The notes under the pieces were generated by a model. That model ran no database searches. It saw only the letters and a list, made by a program, of their open reading frames with translations, and had not been told where the DNA came from. Position numbers and translations under genes: made by a program. From Escherichia phage vB_EcoM_G4507, in the sequence record NC_054919.1: a stretch of 64,000 nucleotides of DNA; one strand, written 5' to 3'. Shown here piece after piece: positions 38,841 to 49,054 of the stretch; within the stretch, counting starts at the first letter, position 1; every line of letters begins with the position of its first letter.

Positions 38841-39067
38841 TTATTTTTCTCAACCAATGATTGAATATAATCATGCAGGTCTTTAGATGCTTTACCCCAC
38901 TTATTTTGATATTCATTTTTGAGATTAGCACGTGATTGAGCTAATAAAACATCATTAGTTGGAGGTAAAGATTCTAATCGCTGAATCTGGCGTCCATAAA
39001 TCATTGCAGCCATCTCGGATTCATAAATCAATCCTTTGAGATGTTCAAATTGATGCCATGAAATCAT
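38837..39067 (-). CDS. hypothetical 76-aa protein
   Basis: ORF coupled to its neighbours. Confidence 0.5.
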
Positions 39068-39363
39068 TTACATTTATCCTCTTTTAACTCTTGACGATAA
39101 TAACATATCATAGTTTTCTGGTCATGTACATATCGTTTTACATCATTAAGCCAAATACGAAATTCCTGGGAATCTTCAAATGGCATACCGACCCAAGCTT
39201 TACCATCAATAACTTTAACTTGCCAAGATAATTTAGCTTCGTCATATGACTTTATTTGTACAGGCCAATTAGGATGAATTGTTTCTTTCTTTACTTCTAG
39301 AGGCTTTGTCGAACAACCAACTAGAAGACCAATAGATAATATTACTGCTGATAGTTTAATCAT
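39064..39363 (-). CDS. pseT.2: outer-membrane spanin (lipoprotein, Rz1 equivalent)
   Basis: 99 aa; signal peptide with lipobox MIKLSAVILSIGLLVGC-S; adjacent to the i-spanin-like gene. Confidence 0.7.
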   Translation of the reverse strand: MIKLSAVILSIGLLVGCSTKPLEVKKETIHPNWPVQIKSYDEAKLSWQVKVIDGKAWVGMPFEDSQEFRIWLNDVKRYVHDQKTMICYYRQELKEDKCK

Positions 39364-39713
39364 TTAGAAAGGTCCTGGATGTCTTCTGCTAACTTGTTGA
39401 AGGAGTTGTTAATTTGTTTTTCAACCAATCCTGGCTTATGAGCCACCACATCCGCCTTCTTTGCGTCTTTGCGCAGTTTTTCATTTTCACGCTCAATAGC
39501 AGCAATTGCCTCACGATTTTTATTATTCATCGCATCAATATAATTATACTGAATTCGCAAATTATTTAATGCTAAAGCGTTTTCATTGGCTGTTTTTGTA
39601 ATTTCGGTAACTGATGTTTCTAATCTTTCTACCTTATTTTTTAAAATAATAGATGTTCCGCCAAATGCTATTACAAGTAATAGCAATCCAGCTGTAAAAT
39701 TACTTACATGCAT
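39360..39713 (-). CDS. pseT.3: inner-membrane spanin (Rz equivalent)
   Basis: 117 aa; N-terminal transmembrane helix GLLLLVIAFGGTSIIL followed by coiled-coil-prone periplasmic region; coupled to the o-spanin gene. Confidence 0.7.
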   Translation of the reverse strand: MHVSNFTAGLLLLVIAFGGTSIILKNKVERLETSVTEITKTANENALALNNLRIQYNYIDAMNNKNREAIAAIERENEKLRKDAKKADVVAHKPGLVEKQINNSFNKLAEDIQDLSK

Positions 39714-40210
39714 AAAGTTTTAATAACCTCTATAATATCGTCTTGAGAAAGACCGTTAATTAAAATATGATGTTCAGCTGGAGATTTAGAAATTTTAAAG
39801 CATGCCTCAACATCTTCTGCCATATCCGATGCACTACGATTTGGATTACTAATCCCAAGGCGATGTTTTCCCGTCAAAGGATTAACGATGATATAGCATT
39901 TGCAGCTATTGATATGAACATTGGGTTGAGTCTGATTAATGAACACTTCACAATCATACTTAGCGAGTTGATTTTCTAAAAAGACTTTCATCTCTTCAAC
40001 CGCATCAGGAAGCATATCACGGGCTTGCTCAAGACGACGATTTCGATATTCTTTAATGGTCGTTTTCCGCTTGACTTGTTTAGCTAAATCTTTCTTAAGA
40101 TCAGTGATATATCCAACTCGACGATTTCCTTTAAATACAGAAATCCCATCTGTAGTATCACCGTATGCTTCAACGACCATTTCAGTAGTAATACGCTGCA
40201 AATCCATCAT
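39704..40210 (-). CDS. alc: Alc, host transcription unfoldase / terminator on cytosine DNA
   Basis: 168-aa ORF between the spanin genes and rnlA; length and position match T4 alc as recalled; driven by early-promoter cassette copy 2. Confidence 0.8.
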   Translation of the reverse strand: MMDLQRITTEMVVEAYGDTTDGISVFKGNRRVGYITDLKKDLAKQVKRKTTIKEYRNRRLEQARDMLPDAVEEMKVFLENQLAKYDCEVFINQTQPNVHINSCKCYIIVNPLTGKHRLGISNPNRSASDMAEDVEACFKISKSPAEHHILINGLSQDDIIEVIKTLCM

Positions 40211-40214
40211 AAAG

Positions 40215-40268
40215 TCCTCATGTTATGCCAGTAAGACTACTATAACACAACACGAGGGACTTGTAAAC
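40215..40268 (-). promoter_or_regulatory. 54-bp early-promoter plus leader cassette, copy 2 (upstream of alc)
   Basis: Identical to 24961-25014 except one transition; GTTTAC -35 begins 3 nt after the rnlA stop; GAGGA SD 4 nt before the alc ATG. Confidence 0.6.
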
Positions 40269-40271
40269 AGC

Positions 40272-41859
<1,588 letters not shown>

Positions 41860-41867
41860 AATAAAAT

Positions 41868-41881
41868 GGGCCTTGCGGCCC
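41868..41881 (-). terminator. hairpin GGGCC-GCAA-GGCCC between nrdB and denA
   Basis: 5-bp GC stem with GNRA-type loop (minus-strand sense). Confidence 0.45.
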
Positions 41882-41886
41882 ACTCC

Positions 41887-43065
41887 TTAAAAGTATTTTT
41901 TAAAACTCATCATAACTTTATCATCAACATCATTATCAATCTGTGCAACAAGGTAAGATGACAGTTCTACTTCTTGTGGCGCGGATTGAACATTATCAGA
42001 ATTAAGATATTCACGAATCCAAGGATACGGATGTTTAACCGGAGCATCGGTAATTGGGCATGGAAGACCACACTGTTTCATACGAGATACAGTTAAGTAA
42101 TCAATAAAGCTCCACATGCTATTTGTATTTAATCCAGGAACATCGCCGTCTTTAAATAAATGAACTGCCCAATCTTTTTCTTGGCGGTTAACTTCCATGA
42201 AAATATCAACTGCTTCTTGTTCACACTCTTGAGCAATTTTAACCCATTCATCGCCATCAGTGCCAAGTTGAAGTTGACGAATAATATATTGGGTGCCTTT
42301 AAGGTGAAGCTGCTCATCACGTGCAATGAACTTCATAATCTTGGCATTACCTTCCATGATTTCCATGTTTTTATGGAAGTTAAAGGTACATGCGAAAGAT
42401 ACATAAAAACGAATAGCTTCCAATGCGTTGATTACATGCAAACAGAGGTAAAGAGATTTCATTAGCTCACGCTTCCAATATGTCTCATGCTCAATAGCAT
42501 CTTCAATAACGTCTTCGTCTGCATTAATTTCTTTTTGGTATTCGATATCAGCTTTAGCGTTTTCCCAATAACGAGTTTTAATCAGAACATCATCATAATA
42601 ACGTCCAATGGATTCAGCACGTTTCATAATAGCTTCATCTAATACAATTTCATCAAATACCTTCGATGGATCAGTATAAAGATTTCGCATGATATGTGTA
42701 TATGAACGGCTGTGAATAGTTTCACTAAAAGTCCACGTAGCAACCCATGTATCAAGGCTTGGGTCTGAAATTAATGACATAAGTACAGCAGACGGCGCAC
42801 GACCCTGAATGCTATCCAAAAGTGATTGATACTTCAGATTATTAGTAAAAATATTTTGCTGATACTGAGGAAGCTTATTAAACTGTGCAGCATCCATCAT
42901 CAAGTTTACTTCTTCAGGACGCCAGAAAAATGATAATTGCTTTTCGGTTAAATCTTCAAAAACTTTATGACGTTGAATATCATAACGCGCAATACCAAGA
43001 CCTGAACCAAAAAACATAGGTTCTTTTAAAACATCAACTGGATTTGTATTAAAAACTGTGCTCAT
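41887..43065 (-). CDS. nrdB: ribonucleotide reductase small subunit NrdB (continuous, no intron)
   Basis: 392-aa uninterrupted ORF MSTVFNTNPVDVLKEPMFFGSGLGIARYDIQRHKVFEDL... Confidence 0.93.
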   Translation of the reverse strand: MSTVFNTNPVDVLKEPMFFGSGLGIARYDIQRHKVFEDLTEKQLSFFWRPEEVNLMMDAAQFNKLPQYQQNIFTNNLKYQSLLDSIQGRAPSAVLMSLISDPSLDTWVATWTFSETIHSRSYTHIMRNLYTDPSKVFDEIVLDEAIMKRAESIGRYYDDVLIKTRYWENAKADIEYQKEINADEDVIEDAIEHETYWKRELMKSLYLCLHVINALEAIRFYVSFACTFNFHKNMEIMEGNAKIMKFIARDEQLHLKGTQYIIRQLQLGTDGDEWVKIAQECEQEAVDIFMEVNRQEKDWAVHLFKDGDVPGLNTNSMWSFIDYLTVSRMKQCGLPCPITDAPVKHPYPWIREYLNSDNVQSAPQEVELSSYLVAQIDNDVDDKVMMSFKKYF

Positions 43066-43116
43066 AAATTTTCCGCTTAGTTAATAGATAGTGACTCGTC
43101 CATGAGTCAAATTATA

Positions 43117-45381
43117 TCATAATTTACAGGATGAACAATCTTCAGCTTTTGGAGTTTCTATTTCATAATCATCAGTACCAGAACCATCACGGGTATTATG
43201 ATAATAGAAATTTTTTCCGCCAAAATACCAAAAATACAAAAGGTCATCAATCATTATTGACATTGGAACCTTGCCTTTAGGGAAGATTTGGGGGTCATAA
43301 TATGTATTCGCTGAAGCTGATTGACACACCCATTTCAGCATAATAGCTACCTGCGTAAGATAAGGTTTATTACCTTTCTTAGCTAATTTCCATGTATAAT
43401 CATAGAGGTCTATGTTATGCTCAATATTGGGCACGACTTGATTAAAGGAGCCCTCTTTTGATTCTTTAACAGAGACTGGTCCACGTGGAGGCTCGATACC
43501 GTTTGTACTGTTAGAAACTTGGGAAGATGACTCACATGGCATAAGTGCTGATAATGTGCTATTACGGATGCCAAAGAGCTTAAGGTCTTCCCGCAGCGAC
43601 GACCAGTCACAAACGTATTTTGGAGCTGCGATTTGGTCAATCTTTTTATTGTACCAGTCGATAGGTAATTCGCCTCGAGACCAACGAGTGTCTGAATAAT
43701 ATTCGCAAGGTCCTTTTTCTTTGGCGAGCTTAATGGATGCTTTAATGAGTCCATACTGTAATCTCTCAAATAGTTCATGTGTTAAATCGTTAGCATCTTC
43801 ATAAGAAGCAAAGTTACTTGCCAGCCAAGCTGCATAGTTGGTAACACCTACACCGAGGTTACGACGCTTTTTGGCTTTTTCTGCTTCAGGAACCGGATAT
43901 CCTTGGTAATCCAAAAGATTATCAAGAGCACGAACTTGGACTTCTGCCAATTCATTAATTTTATCTTGGTCTTGCCAATCAAAGTTATCCAGCACAAATG
44001 CTGATAACGTGCACAATCCAATTTCAGCATCAGGACTATTCACATCATTTGTTGGAATAGCAATTTCACAGCACAAGTTACTCTGACGAATAGGTGCCTT
44101 TTCACGAATAAACGGAGTATAGTTATTCGTATTATCAATGAACTGTACATAAATCCTTGCTGTTCCTGAACGTTCAGTCATGAGCAATTCAAATAGTTCA
44201 CGGGCTTTAATACGCTTTTTACGAATATTAGGGTCTTTTTCTGCTGCTTCGTACAATTCACGGAAACGGTCTTGGTCTTTAAAATAAGAATAATAAAGTT
44301 CGCCACCCATTTCATGCGGACTAAACAAAGTAATGTAATCGTTCTTTCCGAATCGTTCCATCATTAGGTCATTCAGCTGGACGCCATAATCCATATGACG
44401 GATACGGTTTTCTTCTACACCTTTGTTATTTTTCAAAACGAGAAGATTTTCAACTTCCAAATGCCAAATAGGATAATAAGCAGTAGCAGCGCCGCCACGA
44501 ATTCCGCCCTGTGAACATGATTTAACAGCAGTCTGAAAATGTTTCCAAAAAGGAATAACCCCAGTATGGCGTACTTCACCCATGCCAATCTTAGAACCTT
44601 CGGCACGAATCATACCAACGTTAATACCAATTCCAGCGCGTTTAGAGATATATTCAACAATCGAAGCGGAAGCCTTATTGATAGACTTCAGCGAATCACC
44701 TGCCTCAATAACAACACATGAACTAAACTGTCGAGTCGGAGTACGACAACCAGCCATAATAGGAGTTGGTAATGAAATCTGTCGAGTAGATACTGCTTCA
44801 TAAAAACGAATAACATGTTTTAATCTATCAACAGGTTCATCTTGATGCAATGCCATTCCAATAGTCATAAATGCAAACTGCGGAGTTTCATAAATTTGAC
44901 CAGTGGTTTTATCTTTAACTAAATATTTTTCTTTTAATTGCATCGCCCCGGAATAAGTAAATTCCATATCCCGCTCGTGCTTAATTTTTGATTCTAAAAA
45001 TGTAATTTCTTCTGCTGAATATTTTGACAACAATTCAGGGTCATATTTACCTGCATTTACACAGTAAGAAATATGGTCAATAAATGAACGTGGTTCATAC
45101 TGCCCATAAACATGCTTACGAAGAGCAAACATTAAACAGCGTGCAGCTACATATTGATAATCAGGTTCTTCAACCGAAATAGAATTCGCAGCAGCCTTAA
45201 TGACAATAGTCTGAATATCATCAGTTGTCATTCCATCACGGAGATATGATTTAATATTTTCATATAATTCATAAGGATCTACTGATGTTCCCTCAGATGC
45301 CCAAGATAAAACTTTAATAATTTTTTGCGGGTCAAAGCTCTGAGAAACACCACTACTTTTGATAACATTAATTAATTGCAT
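43117..45381 (-). CDS. nrdA: ribonucleotide reductase large subunit NrdA
   Basis: 754-aa ORF with N-terminal ATP-cone region and class I RNR catalytic region; length matches T4 NrdA as recalled. Confidence 0.95.
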   Translation of the reverse strand: MQLINVIKSSGVSQSFDPQKIIKVLSWASEGTSVDPYELYENIKSYLRDGMTTDDIQTIVIKAAANSISVEEPDYQYVAARCLMFALRKHVYGQYEPRSFIDHISYCVNAGKYDPELLSKYSAEEITFLESKIKHERDMEFTYSGAMQLKEKYLVKDKTTGQIYETPQFAFMTIGMALHQDEPVDRLKHVIRFYEAVSTRQISLPTPIMAGCRTPTRQFSSCVVIEAGDSLKSINKASASIVEYISKRAGIGINVGMIRAEGSKIGMGEVRHTGVIPFWKHFQTAVKSCSQGGIRGGAATAYYPIWHLEVENLLVLKNNKGVEENRIRHMDYGVQLNDLMMERFGKNDYITLFSPHEMGGELYYSYFKDQDRFRELYEAAEKDPNIRKKRIKARELFELLMTERSGTARIYVQFIDNTNNYTPFIREKAPIRQSNLCCEIAIPTNDVNSPDAEIGLCTLSAFVLDNFDWQDQDKINELAEVQVRALDNLLDYQGYPVPEAEKAKKRRNLGVGVTNYAAWLASNFASYEDANDLTHELFERLQYGLIKASIKLAKEKGPCEYYSDTRWSRGELPIDWYNKKIDQIAAPKYVCDWSSLREDLKLFGIRNSTLSALMPCESSSQVSNSTNGIEPPRGPVSVKESKEGSFNQVVPNIEHNIDLYDYTWKLAKKGNKPYLTQVAIMLKWVCQSASANTYYDPQIFPKGKVPMSIMIDDLLYFWYFGGKNFYYHNTRDGSGTDDYEIETPKAEDCSSCKL

Positions 45382-45698
45382 AAGTCCTCAACTTGAAAAT
45401 CGTCTTTAAACAATCGGTTAACTATATGAGCTATTATATCACCATGACACGGCTTTGGTTTACATGTGCATCCTAGCCTCATTCCACGTAAAGGCTCTAA
45501 ATGTGCTTTAGTTATTTCTCCGGATTTAATTCGACGTATAAAATCTTTTTTGAATAATTCAATGGCAGCCTCCCGGCTGCCAGCATCTTTACCGACGTAA
45601 TTTCCCCAAAATGTACCGCGGTGAATATTAACATCAAAGTCGGATTTATATTTATTCACTACTCGGCATATACGGCCTGCGCGGTTGTAAGTGTTCAT
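45372..45698 (-). CDS. hypothetical Cys-motif protein (nrdA.1-like)
   Basis: 108 aa; conserved-looking motif [11 protein letters not shown]...[13 protein letters not shown]; overlaps the nrdA start by 10 nt. Confidence 0.6.
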
Positions 45699-45915
45699 AT
45701 TGTTCTTCCGTTAAAACAGTAATATCGTAGTAACAGTCAGAAGAAGTTTTAACTGTGGAAATTTTATTATCAAAATACTCACGGGTCATTTTATGAGTAT
45801 AATATTTTTTGCCATAAATGATAATAGGCTGATTTGGTCCTGGAACTTCTAACTCACTTGGATTAGGAAGTGTAAAAAGAACTACACCAGAAGTATCTTT
45901 AAATCGTAAAATCAT
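45652..45915 (-). CDS. hypothetical 87-aa protein (nrdA.2-like)
   Basis: ORF overlapping the next gene by 47 nt in another frame. Confidence 0.5.
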
Positions 45916-45938
45916 AAATCCTCACAATTAAATTAAAA

Positions 45939-46250
45939 TTACACCGCCATTTTTCCTTTCAAGACGCCGTGGGGCTGATAATCTTTGAGAACGAAATCTT
46001 TAGGCCTGAGTTTAAGAATGTATTCCAATTGTTCTTTAGTAGAAAGATAGCGGAATTTATAAGGCAATCCGCCTATTACCAGTTCACAAAGCTCTTTAGG
46101 TTCACGACGCAAAATTTCTTTACATTGTTCTACGTGATTCATATAGATATGAGTATTACCACCGGAAAATATCAAATCTCCCGGAATAAGATTACACATC
46201 TTAGCTACAATATGAACTAACGTAGCATATGATGCAATATTAAATGGAAG
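45939..46250 (-). CDS. td: thymidylate synthase, exon 2
   Basis: Exon starts CTACCGTTTAAT (LPFNIASYATLVH...) directly after the intron terminal G; joins in frame with exon 1 for a 286-aa product. Confidence 0.9.
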   Translation of the reverse strand, partial: LPFNIASYATLVHIVAKMCNLIPGDLIFSGGNTHIYMNHVEQCKEILRREPKELCELVIGGLPYKFRYLSTKEQLEYILKLRPKDFVLKDYQPHGVLKGKMAV

Positions 46251-47266
46251 CATTATGTTCAGATAAGGTCGTTAATCTTACCCCGGAATTATATCCAGCT
46301 GCATGTCACCATGCAGATCAGACTATATCTCCAACTTGTTAAAGCAAGTTGTCTATCGTTTCGAGTCACTTGACCCTACTCCCCAAAGGGATAGTCGTTA
46401 GGCATTTATGTAGAACCAATTCCATTTATCAGATTTTACACGATAAGTAACTAATCCAGACGAAATTTTAAAATGTCTAGTTGCATCTGCTGCACAATCA
46501 AAAATAACCCCATCACATGAAATCTTTTTAATATTACTAGGCTTTTTACCTTTCATCTTTTCTGATATTTTAGATTTAGTTATGTCTGAATGCTTATGAT
46601 TAAAGAATGAATTATTTTCACCTGAACGATTTCTGCATTTACTACAAGTATAAGCAGAAGTTTGTATGCGAACACCGCACTTACAAAACTTATGGGTTTC
46701 TGGATTCCAACGCCCGTTTTTACTTCCGGGTTTACTGTAAAGAGCTTTCCGACCATCAGGTCCAAGTTTAAGCATCTTAGCTTTAACAGTTTCAGAACGT
46801 TTCTTAATAATTTCTTCTTTTAATGGATGCGTAGAACATGTATCACCAAACGTTGCATCAGCAATATTGTATCCATTAATTTTAGAATTAAGCTCTTTAA
46901 TCCAAAAATTTTCTCGTTCAATAATCAAATCTTTCTCATATGGAATTTCTTCCAAAATAGAACATTCAAACACATTACCATGTTTGTTAAAAGACCTCTG
47001 AAGCTTTATAGAAGAATGGCATCCTTTTTCTAAATCTTTAAAATGCCTCTTCCATCTCTTTTCAAAATCTTTAGCACTTCCTACATATACTTTATTGTTT
47101 AAAGTATTTTTAATCTGATAAATTCCGCTTTTCATAAATACCTCTTTAAATATAGAAGTATTTATTAAAGGGCAGTCCTACAATTTAGCACGGGATTGTC
47201 TACTAGAGAGGTTCCCCGTTTAGATAGATTACAAGTATAAGTCACCTTATACTCAGGCCTCAATTA
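46251..47266 (-). ncRNA. self-splicing group I intron of td (1016 nt) carrying the I-TevI ORF
   Basis: Exon 1 ends CTTGGGT; intron begins UAAUUGAGGCCUGAGUAUAAGGUGACUUAUACUUG... and ends ...AUG. Boundaries give exactly 1016 nt and a uninterrupted td reading frame. Confidence 0.9.
46398..47135 (-). CDS. I-TevI: GIY-YIG homing endonuclease I-TevI (intron-encoded)
   Basis: 245 aa; MKSGIYQIKNTLNNKVYVGSAKDFEKRWKRHFKDLEKGCHSSIKLQRSF... with zinc finger CKCGVRIQTSAYTCSKC and C-terminal DNA-binding region. Confidence 0.93.
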   Translation of the reverse strand: MKSGIYQIKNTLNNKVYVGSAKDFEKRWKRHFKDLEKGCHSSIKLQRSFNKHGNVFECSILEEIPYEKDLIIERENFWIKELNSKINGYNIADATFGDTCSTHPLKEEIIKKRSETVKAKMLKLGPDGRKALYSKPGSKNGRWNPETHKFCKCGVRIQTSAYTCSKCRNRSGENNSFFNHKHSDITKSKISEKMKGKKPSNIKKISCDGVIFDCAADATRHFKISSGLVTYRVKSDKWNWFYINA

Positions 47267-47815
47267 ACCCAAGAAAACATCTACTGATCGTTGATACCAC
47301 TGCAAATCCAAATAGCCATTACGCACATTAAACTGATAGAACATATGACAAGGCGGTAATGCCATTTGCTTAAGTTCTGCCGGATTCCATGCTGAAACAA
47401 TTTGACGCCTATCATTTGGCAGTTTTTTAATACGATCAATAACTTCTATAATTTGGTCTACACCGCCAAAATCACGCCATTGTTTTCCATAAATTGGACC
47501 AAGTTCACCGCTATGGTATCCTAAATCTTTTGCTTGATTTTCGTAATTTTCATCCCAGACTGTTTTGCCTTGAATTAATGAATTATGTTGAATTAATCGC
47601 AAATCATTTACGTTAGTACTTCCTGATAAGAACCACAATAACTCAGAAATACATGCATTCCAGGCGAGCTTCTTAGTTGTTACTGCAGGAAAACCTTTAG
47701 TTAAATCCCAGCGTAATTTAGTACCGAACAAAGCAATTGTTCCTGTGCCCGTTCGGTCATCAGTTTCATAACCATTTTCAAAAATGTCTTTAATTAAATC
47801 TTGGTATTGTTTCAT
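47267..47815 (-). CDS. td: thymidylate synthase, exon 1
   Basis: 183 codons MKQYQDLIKDIFENGYETDDRTGTGTIALFG... ending VDVFLG, then in-frame UAA at the first intron codon. Confidence 0.9.
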
Positions 47816-47860
47816 TTAGTACCTTATATAAATTATAATACATTTTATGAAGCTAAATAA

Positions 47861-48208
47861 TCAATACGGTTTAGCATCAAATTTTCTCTCAATTTCAGGC
47901 GTGAAATATAATTCTTTACCGCGTTTGGAAAAGCGACCAATAATATGATAATTATTCTCATCAAACGTGATATTACCAATATCCATAGCTTTCAACCAAA
48001 TATCGATATTTCTATCCAGCTTTATGTCAAAATTCCAATACGGAGAACTATTACCGAAAATACTGCAAGCGGATTCAGTGAAACAACTGCTATAAATCTT
48101 GTCTTTAGGAACTACTAATTGATAGACACCTTTAATAAACTGAGGACCCTGCCATTTAGGTTGTTTCTCATCTTTTTCTAATAGAATAGGGTAATAATTA
48201 AAATTCAT
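47861..48208 (-). CDS. hypothetical 115-aa protein inserted between frd and td
   Basis: ORF starts 19 nt after the frd stop (co-transcribed); no recognisable motif. Confidence 0.55.
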   Translation of the reverse strand: MNFNYYPILLEKDEKQPKWQGPQFIKGVYQLVVPKDKIYSSCFTESACSIFGNSSPYWNFDIKLDRNIDIWLKAMDIGNITFDENNYHIIGRFSKRGKELYFTPEIERKFDAKPY

Positions 48209-48227
48209 ATTTCCGCCACGCGTTATT

Positions 48228-49054
<827 letters not shown>

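Follow-up and report, generated by a model that had tools for sequence, protein, structure and literature searches.

Patchy occupancy by introns and homing elements has been described in the T-even phages since 1987-89 and is by now textbook material. In T4 (NC_000866), nrdA and nrdB are separated by a 696-nt insert consisting of mobE and nrdB.1, and nrdB itself consists of two exons interrupted at nt 664|665 (T4 numbering) by a 598-nt intron with a truncated I-TevIII; this annotated layout agrees with what a sequence-only reading of the DNA studied here had stated for T4. A hairpin inside T4 mobE acts as a terminator, and it has been proposed as an adaptation to restrain mobE. This hairpin terminates 30-50% of transcripts (Wilson & Edgell 2009, PMC2790892). 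The recipient allele used in the same work was that of T2 (MH751506), which has a continuous 1179-nt nrdB and carries neither mobE nor the nrdB intron.

We analysed a 64,000-nt stretch of Escherichia phage vB_EcoM_G4507 (NC_054919.1), hereafter the window, in which nrdB (41887-43065) and nrdA (43117-45381, with the stop codon TGA at 43117-43119) lie next to each other on the minus strand. In class Ia (aerobic) ribonucleotide reductases, the large subunit combines an ATP-cone with an all-alpha domain and a ten-stranded barrel, and the small subunit belongs to the ferritin-like Ribonuc_red_sm proteins. The 754-aa NrdA shows the Pfam domains ATP-cone, Ribonuc_red_lgN and Ribonuc_red_lgC (3.8e-135) and the 392-aa NrdB matches Ribonuc_red_sm at 1e-36, with scores well over the curated cut-offs for both subunits, and the two genes are 96-98% identical in DNA sequence to annotated Tequatrovirus nrdA and nrdB, so that both subunits belong to this class. 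The description of the two genes as adjacent and uninterrupted, with a gap of 51 nt, is borne out by the open reading frames, by Pfam and by colinearity with T2 and Yersinia phage PST. The nrdB gene starts with ATG, is continuous over 392 codons and aligns without gaps, along all of its 1179 nt, to the intronless nrdB of these two phages. The spacer (43066-43116, minus strand) contains no mobE, hef or small open reading frame according to the ORF list, and neither an exon-intron structure nor a hidden endonuclease ORF was found within 41887-45381. A putative weak Shine-Dalgarno sequence, GCGGA (43072-43076, minus strand), places GGA 6 nt before the nrdB ATG. We therefore assign the window, with high confidence, to a Tequatrovirus (T-even phage) carrying the unoccupied T2-type nrdA-nrdB allele, defined by an nrdB colinear with intronless nrdB and a short spacer without an ORF, and we read the spacer as the native intercistronic region.

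The T2 spacer is also 51 nt long and differs from that of the window at a single nucleotide (98% identical), with the same hairpin and the same TGATATAAT; where the window has GCGGA, T2 has GTGGA. The nrdB genes of the two phages are 93.9% identical at the nucleotide level and 97.2% at the amino acid level. PST (KF208315 / NC_027404) and nine further records that are colinear over 6.9 kb share the gene order of the window (denA, intronless nrdB, 51-nt spacer, nrdA, nrdA.1, nrdA.2, td exon 2, I-TevI and td exon 1) at 95.8-97.6% DNA identity, although PST differs in having AAA at codon 42 of nrdB, a C in the hairpin loop where the window has T, and 5 different nucleotides in the spacer. T4 has the same flanking genes in the same order, and in both phages td carries an intron with I-TevI. 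The T4 nrdA is 95.9% identical to that of the window in DNA sequence and identity in exon 2 of nrdB amounts to 97%, whereas the 5' region of nrdB is diverged, with CGG at codon 42 in T4. Identity to T4 along nrdB is 80-85% in the first 200 nt, 52% in nt 501-600 and 97% elsewhere. When the junction is aligned with T4 and its relatives, as the sequence-only reading had proposed, the 51-nt spacer lies opposite the 696-nt insert of T4, and uninterrupted coding sequence lies opposite the 598-nt intron.

A free-standing HNH insertion of the mobE type consists of an HNH/NUMOD open reading frame whose start overlaps the stop codon of nrdA (UAAUGA) and which contains an internal terminator hairpin. The window shows no such insertion, with only 51 non-coding nt following the nrdA stop, and the mobE-bearing loci (T4, L007, L010, L011 and L015) look different from it. 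For the group I intron of nrdB we looked for an insertion of 598 nt (T4 type) or about 1.09 kb (RB3 type) after the codons for ...SFA-C; none is present at this position, where the window reads uninterrupted through IRFYVSFACTFNFHKN, and a blastn comparison of the window with T4 passes over the T4 nrdB intron. The td gene, on the other hand, is split by a 1016-nt group I intron (46251-47266, minus strand) that carries the I-TevI ORF (46398-47135, minus strand), so the earlier suggestion of mosaic occupancy, with the td intron retained, is correct. The Thymidylat_synt domain is divided between two ORFs, the intron ORF combines GIY-YIG, I-TevI_ZnF and I-TevI_DNA-bd domains in Pfam, phage 4E10 lacks exactly positions 46251-47266, and the intron is 99.7-100% identical to the td introns of T4 and others. 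A search of positions 41000-48500 against Rfam at the gathering threshold returned zero hits; because the td intron was missed as well, this silence is uninformative on ORF-bearing introns. At E-values up to 10, Rfam 15 gave three sub-threshold chance hits in 41800-45500 and none in the spacer.

To place this arrangement among known phages, we compared the public records matching each element. The 111-nt junction query matched 400 phage records, 371 of them at near full length; identity over the junction is 95-100%, and T2 (99.1%), RB14 and AR1 are among these phages. The T4 mobE insert used as query matched 143 records, the T4 nrdB intron matched 118 other records, and the td intron was found in 195. 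An occupied td together with an empty nrdB and spacer is also present in PST and in nine or more further records, with colinearity over 6.9 kb in a single piece for ECML-123-2, ECP52, PST, vB_Eco_Geo, ZCEC15, WL-3, ESh32 and OES_C-1/2/3. Since the empty junction occurs in about 400 records against about 140 for the mobE type and about 120 for the intron, the locus is not unusual: the empty nrdA-nrdB allele is the commonest arrangement, already known and ordinary. Any noteworthiness that the sequence-only reading had implied for the locus is thus lost, the empty state being that of the majority and the identical combination being already annotated in PST and others.

We also searched nrdB for the target sites of both endonucleases, as that reading had recommended, and both a T2-type MobE target and a nearly unchanged I-TevIII homing site are present. 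Alleles susceptible to MobE are recognised by an AAG as codon 42, which falls in the polymorphic stretch nt 114-131 of nrdB, and by the conserved block coding for FFWRPEE that follows it. In the window the corresponding region (nrdB nt 114-150; 42916-42952, minus strand) has AAG at codon 42 followed by QLSFFWRPEE. In T2, the MobE-dependent nicks, which fall on the non-coding strand, have been mapped in vivo by primer extension to nrdB nt 122-126, equivalent to window positions 42940-42944 (PMC2790892). The window is identical to T2 over nrdB nt 100-128; two silent differences follow shortly 3' of the nick site, at nt 129 and at nt 132. Compared with T4, nt 100-160 show 17 differences. The empty intron insertion site, placed from the derived T4 exon boundaries, lies between 42390 and 42389 (nrdB nt 676|677), within an I-TevIII homing site at 42371-42415 on the minus strand. 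This homing site equals the T4 exon junction at positions -26 to -6 and +1 to +19, with silent changes at -5 and -2. I-TevIII cleaves upstream of the insertion site at -14/-16 (PMC1865063), and the window is identical to T4 at these positions. Both targets are presumably susceptible, judging from their sequences. Since a T2-type MobE target is combined with an almost unchanged I-TevIII site, the phage should receive mobE and the intron by homing, and in mixed infection with T4 we predict that it would acquire both.

Directly at the end of nrdA, the sequence TGATATAAT (43111-43119, minus strand) joins the stop codon TGA to a perfect -10 hexamer, forming a TGn extended -10 of a presumed nrdB promoter. 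It matches the -10 element of T4 middle promoters (TAtaaT, often with TGn) and is conserved across lineages; TATAAT (or TAnnnT) is kept at this position in all mobE-less T-even-type loci compared, and the module of TATAAT and hairpin follows the nrdA stop whichever gene comes next. The MotA box has the consensus (a/t)(a/t)(a/t)TGCTTtA and precedes the -10 hexamer by 12±1 bp (PMC2988021). Reading by eye, we found no MotA box at this distance in the lineage of the window, the best candidate being TTGTTCA (5/7, spacing 15), whereas sister lineages have the MotA-box-like AAGCTTTAA 11-12 nt upstream of TATAAT, at the right spacing. A sigma-70 promoter scan passed over the TATAAT at 43111-43116, for want of a -35 hexamer that scores 4/6 or better. 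For the lineage of the window, a promoter of the TGn/-10 type is possible.

After one intervening base, the hexamer is followed by the inverted repeat TGACTC-GTCCAT-GAGTCA. The sequence-only reading had noticed this repeat, which is indeed present, but at 43092-43109 on the minus strand, 6 nt away from the 43086-43103 given there. In the sense of the mRNA it forms the hairpin UGACUC-AUGGAC-GAGUCA, with a 6-bp stem containing 3 G-C pairs, an A.C mismatch at the seventh pair, and a 6-nt loop with an NGGA core. In a terminator scan the hairpin is classed as terminator-like, with 6 pairs, 3 of them G-C, and the tail CTATCTATTA, but the T-run is interrupted and the stem is weak; Wilson & Edgell (PMC2790892) state that the spacer of phages without mobE contains no terminator. 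Similar to the terminator in T4 mobE, which is weak by design, the window hairpin is a stem-loop that follows soon after the nrdA stop, upstream of nrdB and upstream of or overlapping the nrdB promoter. It differs in having 6 bp and an interrupted T-run, in being non-coding and in standing directly after a -10 element, and its terminator activity is putative. T4 does not have the TATAAT-NGGA hairpin module; its place is taken there by the terminator hairpin of mobE, which has 9 bp, together with a promoter that lies further downstream.

By itself, the hairpin does not exceed what chance would produce: a perfect 6-bp hairpin arises in 9% of shuffled 51-nt spacers, and the window as a whole contains 4.3 of them per kb. 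It is thermodynamically weak (-7.5 kcal/mol), and its 71-nt context folds with z = -0.92 (about -0.7 to -0.9 overall). Because shuffling and folding alone remain at chance level, the hairpin is recognisable as real only through comparison with other phages. Homologous hairpins with different stems are present in 15 distinct lineages. Their alignment has 85.7% of cells paired and changes on both sides in 6 of the 7 pairs, with a covariation score of 0.649 against 0.229 in shuffles (0/500), in a set that was selected for an NGGA motif flanked by 5 or more of 7 possible pairs and is thus biased towards structure. The stems vary almost fully by lineage (TGACTCA, GCTCA, GGACCA, GAGGACA, GGCTCA, GGGATA and ACCACA), while the NGGA loop and the pairing are kept. 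Among the distinct sequences downstream of nrdA, 38 of 61 fold with z < -2, and in more distant relatives this place is occupied by classic terminators with UUCG or GAAA tetraloops. Within the 64-kb window we found no further TATAAT with a YGGA-loop hairpin, so this is not a general T-even motif there. Judged by these comparisons, TATAAT with the NGGA-loop hairpin is a conserved element of T4-like lineages with compensatory changes in the stem, and the covariation supports the earlier suggestion that the hairpin is regulatory.

It could be argued that the hairpin of the window is itself without function, as a chance inverted repeat or as what is left of a decaying element whose function is confined to other lineages. 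The frequency of equal hairpins in shuffled spacers and in the window at large, the unremarkable z-values and the A.C mismatch, which shortens the T2-type stem to 6 bp, agree with such a reading. We nevertheless consider it quite unlikely, given that every T2-type record has the hairpin in this position, that its homologs covary and that most of the distinct post-nrdA sequences are significantly structured. Alternatively, the inverted repeat may work as DNA, as an operator or cruciform that is located where transcription from the nrdB promoter begins and is bound by a dimeric regulator, and not as an RNA hairpin. The repeat is coupled to the -10 hexamer, always following it by 0-3 nt, however far away the nrdA stop lies, and transcripts starting about 7 nt past the hexamer would be without the 5' arm. 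G.U and A.C exceptions are tied at 3 each (A.C read from the alignment), favouring neither strand, so that these counts do not separate RNA from DNA pairing. Against this, the stems differ nearly completely while the NGGA loop and the pairing stay, which is typical of structure and not of half-site recognition, and the tetraloop terminators of the distant relatives occupy the same place. We know of no candidate regulator for an operator, and we regard this reading as unlikely.

A different history for the locus is that mobE, the intron or both were formerly present and later lost, leaving the spacer and its hairpin as a deletion scar or as the remnant of an endonuclease site. Homing elements are known to be gained, to decay and to be lost in cycles, locus L029 shows that internal deletion of mobE does occur, and the T-even nrd region is recombinationally mosaic, as seen in the uneven identity of nrdB to T4 along the gene. 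However, L029, a true mobE scar, keeps the start and the terminator of mobE as well as a T4-type 3' end, unlike the window, and by this comparison we rejected a deletion scar for the spacer. The spacer has no evident similarity to the ends of the T4 insert, homology to T4 stopping at 43065 and resuming at 43121, and its near-identity in about 400 records including T2 also argues against a scar. Moreover, the TATAAT-hairpin module covaries in lineages that never show mobE, and the nrdB of the window has T2-type, mobE-less polymorphisms at codon 42. The idea of an endonuclease target remnant, which the sequence-only reading had raised for the hairpin, was discarded, since MobE and I-TevIII both act inside nrdB and neither in the spacer. 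Loss of this kind is therefore highly improbable, although an occupied allele may have been replaced through recombination with an empty allele, which would yield the same present-day state.

We return to the native, unoccupied spacer. Its TATAAT is probably the -10 of a promoter belonging to nrdB, and the hairpin that overlaps this promoter is probably a weak attenuator or stabiliser, as the conservation of the module suggests. Most likely, read-through transcripts from the nrdA promoters would form the hairpin just after the nrdA stop codon, where it would act as a weak attenuator, as a barrier protecting the 3' end of the nrdA mRNA, or as both. Transcripts from the overlapping nrdB promoter would start inside the hairpin and thus be without it, and nrdA and nrdB could be expressed together as well as separately. 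In T4, the equivalent role would fall to the weak terminator inside mobE and the promoter downstream of that terminator. We propose more tentatively, and with some doubt, that a structured post-nrdA element may be an ancestral and selected control of nrdA-nrdB expression in all T4-like phages, which the mobE terminator replaces; within the T-even group this element would be the covarying NGGA-loop hairpin joined to a -10 hexamer.

The finding adds one T-even phage with the common empty nrdA-nrdB and an occupied td, and as such is of little importance. Possibly new is only the covarying hairpin joined to a -10 element after nrdA, and this is a minor side point. If the proposal of an ancestral control element is true, the terminator inside T4 mobE would be a replacement for the post-nrdA hairpin that any insertion must supply, and not an adaptation restraining mobE. 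The covarying hairpin and its -10 element could refine the view of separate and coordinate expression of NrdA and NrdB, and of the reason for the internal terminator of mobE.

The sequence-only reading had described nrdA and nrdB as adjacent and uninterrupted, and both are indeed long ORFs on the minus strand, nrdB at 41887..43065 (392 aa, ATG start) and nrdA at 43117..45381 (754 aa), 51 nt apart (spacer 43066..43116). By Pfam, their products are the small and large subunits of a class Ia ribonucleotide reductase (Ribonuc_red_sm, 1e-36; ATP-cone, Ribonuc_red_lgN and Ribonuc_red_lgC, 3.8e-135). The locus is flanked by rnlA (40272..41432) and denA (41449..41883) on one side and by nrdA.1 (45372..45698; DUF4326) and nrdA.2 (45652..45915; DUF5496) on the other. 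The same genome retains the td intron, as had been claimed: td is split, with exon 1 at 47264..47815, exon 2 ending near 46250, and I-TevI (46398..47135) inside. Rfam at the gathering threshold did not detect this group I intron in window 45900-47900, presumably because of the 738-nt I-TevI ORF inserted there, so an Rfam negative does not rule out introns with ORFs in windows of this kind.

Over 4.2 kb around the locus, identity to many Tequatrovirus genomes, including 4E10, RB14, CM8, AR1 and RB27, is 96-98.6%. Alignment to T4 (NC_000866) by blastn gives three blocks, at 95.9% (window 43121-47818), 97.4% (39001-42389) and only 84.5% (42392-43065). The window lacks two stretches of T4: 696 nt that separate nrdA from nrdB and carry the annotations mobE and nrdB.1, and 598 nt within nrdB, an intron with a truncated I-TevIII (T4 exon boundaries were set by the requirement of a 388-aa reading frame); the arrangement given for T4, with an I-TevIII intron in nrdB and mobE between the two genes, is therefore correct. 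Within nrdB, nt 501-600 (window 42466-42565), an acidic variable NrdB segment, show 52% identity to T4 and a 12-nt indel, versus 97% for the remaining gene, and this indel accounts for the 392 rather than 388 codons. Identity is 80-85% over nt 1-200 (window 42866-43065), and this patch coincides with the zone of the MobE target and of co-conversion. The nearest relative over the nrd genes, 4E10 (OQ689735; 98.6%), has an uninterrupted td; what sets it apart from the window is exactly the 1016-nt intron and its I-TevI (window 46251-47266), so td occupancy varies among close relatives too.

The empty state is not unusual. In the phage collection, a 111-nt junction query (43036-43146) matched 400 records, 371 of them near full length and nearly all at least 95% identical, including T2 (99.1%), RB14, RB18, RB27 and AR1. 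The T4 mobE/nrdB.1 insert matched 143 records, mostly adjoining nrdA, and the T4 nrdB intron and the window td intron were found at a cover of at least 80% in 118 and 195 records, respectively. The combination of td intron present with nrdB intron and mobE absent recurs as one colinear 6.9-kb alignment in ECML-123-2, ECP52, Yersinia phage PST, vB_Eco_Geo, ZCEC15, WL-3, ESh32 and OES_C-1/2/3. The PST annotation is identical in layout (1179-nt nrdB, 51-nt spacer, nrdA, NrdA.1, NrdA.2, td-B, I-TevI, td-A). There are other combinations too, such as the empty spacer with an nrdB intron carrying full-length I-TevIII in AV120 and Pu-Krd-SF1/SF5. Pedersen-Lane and Belfort in 1987 and Quirk et al. in 1989, both cited in PMC2988022, reportedly described an uneven intron distribution across T-even phages. 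The locus is a common, long-described T2-type empty allele, and the finding is for that reason already known and of low interest.

Other occupants of the gap were seen among the nrd loci collected from other genomes (L-numbers). In T4 (L001, 4717-5417), mobE (141 aa) and nrdB.1 (83 aa) are annotated separately; a single continuous HNH and NUMOD1 ORF of 241-243 aa spans the whole gap in L007 (770-1501) and L015 (779-1504). The C-terminal parts of mobE-type genes vary by phage, and in many records the match to T4 mobE is confined to its first 174 nt. L071 (1944-3200; same contig as L035), L060 and L083 carry an ORF of >420 aa in the gap; it has only weak Pfam matches, to REase_MTES_1575 and DUF559 (PD-(D/E)xK-like), and is possibly the Hef-type endonuclease that reportedly takes the place of mobE in certain phages. 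A TATAAT and hairpin of its own (ACCACA-AGGA-TGTGGT) precede this ORF, even though NrdA there matches the window at 100% over the segment compared, its last 200 aa. In other T4-like lineages (L012, L016, L022, L023, L030) the gap is filled by small ORFs of one family (65-77 aa; C-terminus F(R/E/A)(Y/F)EE(V/I)K), and the two members scanned (L016, L023) had no Pfam match.

The inverted repeat reported in the spacer is present, at 43092-43109, 6 nt from where it had been placed. On its own this hairpin is unremarkable: its folding energy is -7.5 kcal/mol (z = -0.92 in a 71-nt context), 9% of shuffled spacers hold an equal one, and such hairpins occur at 4.3 per kb across the window. We compared 34 loci collected via NrdB and 80 via the NrdA C-terminus. 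Nearly all T-even-type loci without a mobE-type gene carry TATAAT (or TAGAAT/TGTAAT) directly after the nrdA stop and, 0-3 nt further on, a hairpin of 5-7 bp whose loop is NGGA. The gene that comes next makes no difference: it can be nrdB, an ORF of 65-130 aa or a large one of >420 aa. This module (window 43092-43119) follows nrdA in most mobE-less T-even-type phages, with stems that differ by lineage (TGACTCA, GCTCA, GGACCA, GAGGACA, GGCTCA, GACCA, GGGATA, ACCACA). In an alignment of 15 distinct sequences, chosen as NGGA motifs with at least 5/7 flanking pairs and so biased towards structure, pairing holds in 85.7% of cells, the four inner variable pairs are intact throughout with 2-4 pair types each, and in 6/7 pairs both sides have changed. 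Covariation scores 0.649, versus 0.229 ± 0.048 in shuffles (0/500 reach 0.649) and at most 0.17 with slid partners, which supports the suggestion of a regulatory hairpin. In T4-like phages that are further removed, this place holds a classic hairpin with a UUCG or GAAA tetraloop and a T-run, and in mobE+ phages it holds the mobE-internal terminator. When the 55 nt following nrdA were folded in 61 distinct versions, 38 gave z < -2 (median -2.3), and the window version was among the weakest. Rfam has no model for the element, no further copy occurs in the 64-kb window, and a limited literature search turned up no account of the module, a minor observation that merits one line in a comparative study of T4-like nrd regulation.

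T4 middle promoters are strict about their -10 sequence (PMC2988021), and the conserved TATAAT agrees with what they require. The Lys-Leu-stop codons of several sister lineages, AAGCTTTAA, lie 11-12 nt upstream of TATAAT and make a MotA-box-like element at the correct spacing. The nrdA stop codon supplies the TGn (TGATATAAT) in the window lineage, where no good MotA box lies at 12±1 bp and a TGn/-10 type of promoter is possible. Transcription beginning about 7 nt past the hexamer would start within the 5' arm, so that only read-through transcripts from nrdA promoters would form the hairpin. Our favoured guess is that it weakly attenuates transcription and/or shields the 3' end of the nrdA message, as a putative counterpart of the T4 mobE-internal terminator, which halts 30-50% of transcripts (Wilson & Edgell, PMC2790892). 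Against this reading stand the poor U-tract and the explicit statement of the same authors that the mobE-less spacer has no terminator. Because the repeat is so tightly tied to the -10 hexamer, it may instead be an operator that acts at the DNA level, and the G.U versus A.C exceptions in the alignment do not decide the strand. In L076 and L077 a hairpin (GCGGGGA-GAAA-TCCCCGC, about 10-45 nt past the nrdA stop) spaces a TTGAC -35 from a TATAAT -10; here promoter and terminator-like hairpin overlap in another manner.

The other suggestion, that the repeat is an endonuclease target remnant, is rejected, since both relevant targets lie in nrdB and the spacer is unlike a real mobE remnant. Such a remnant is the 168-nt spacer of L029 (1330-1500; IMGVR_UViG_2974546015_000001), an internal mobE deletion that retains the mobE start, terminator hairpin and T4-type 3' end, and is direct evidence of in-place decay of mobE. 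The window spacer looks quite different, has no evident similarity to either T4 insert end, and is not a scar. MobE-dependent nicks map to nt 122-126 of T2 nrdB, and mobE-less phages all have AAG as codon 42, followed by a conserved FFWRPEE block (PMC2790892). Window nrdB has AAG at codon 42, with QLSFFWRPEE; T2 shares every base of nt 100-128 and differs silently at nt 129 and 132; T4 differs at 17 positions over nt 100-160. The empty intron insertion site lies between 42390 and 42389; around it, positions -26 to -6 and +1 to +19 match the T4 exon junction, while -5 and -2 are substituted. The MobE and I-TevIII targets are thus both within nrdB and none is in the spacer; judging from these sites, this phage should be a recipient for both mobE and the nrdB intron.
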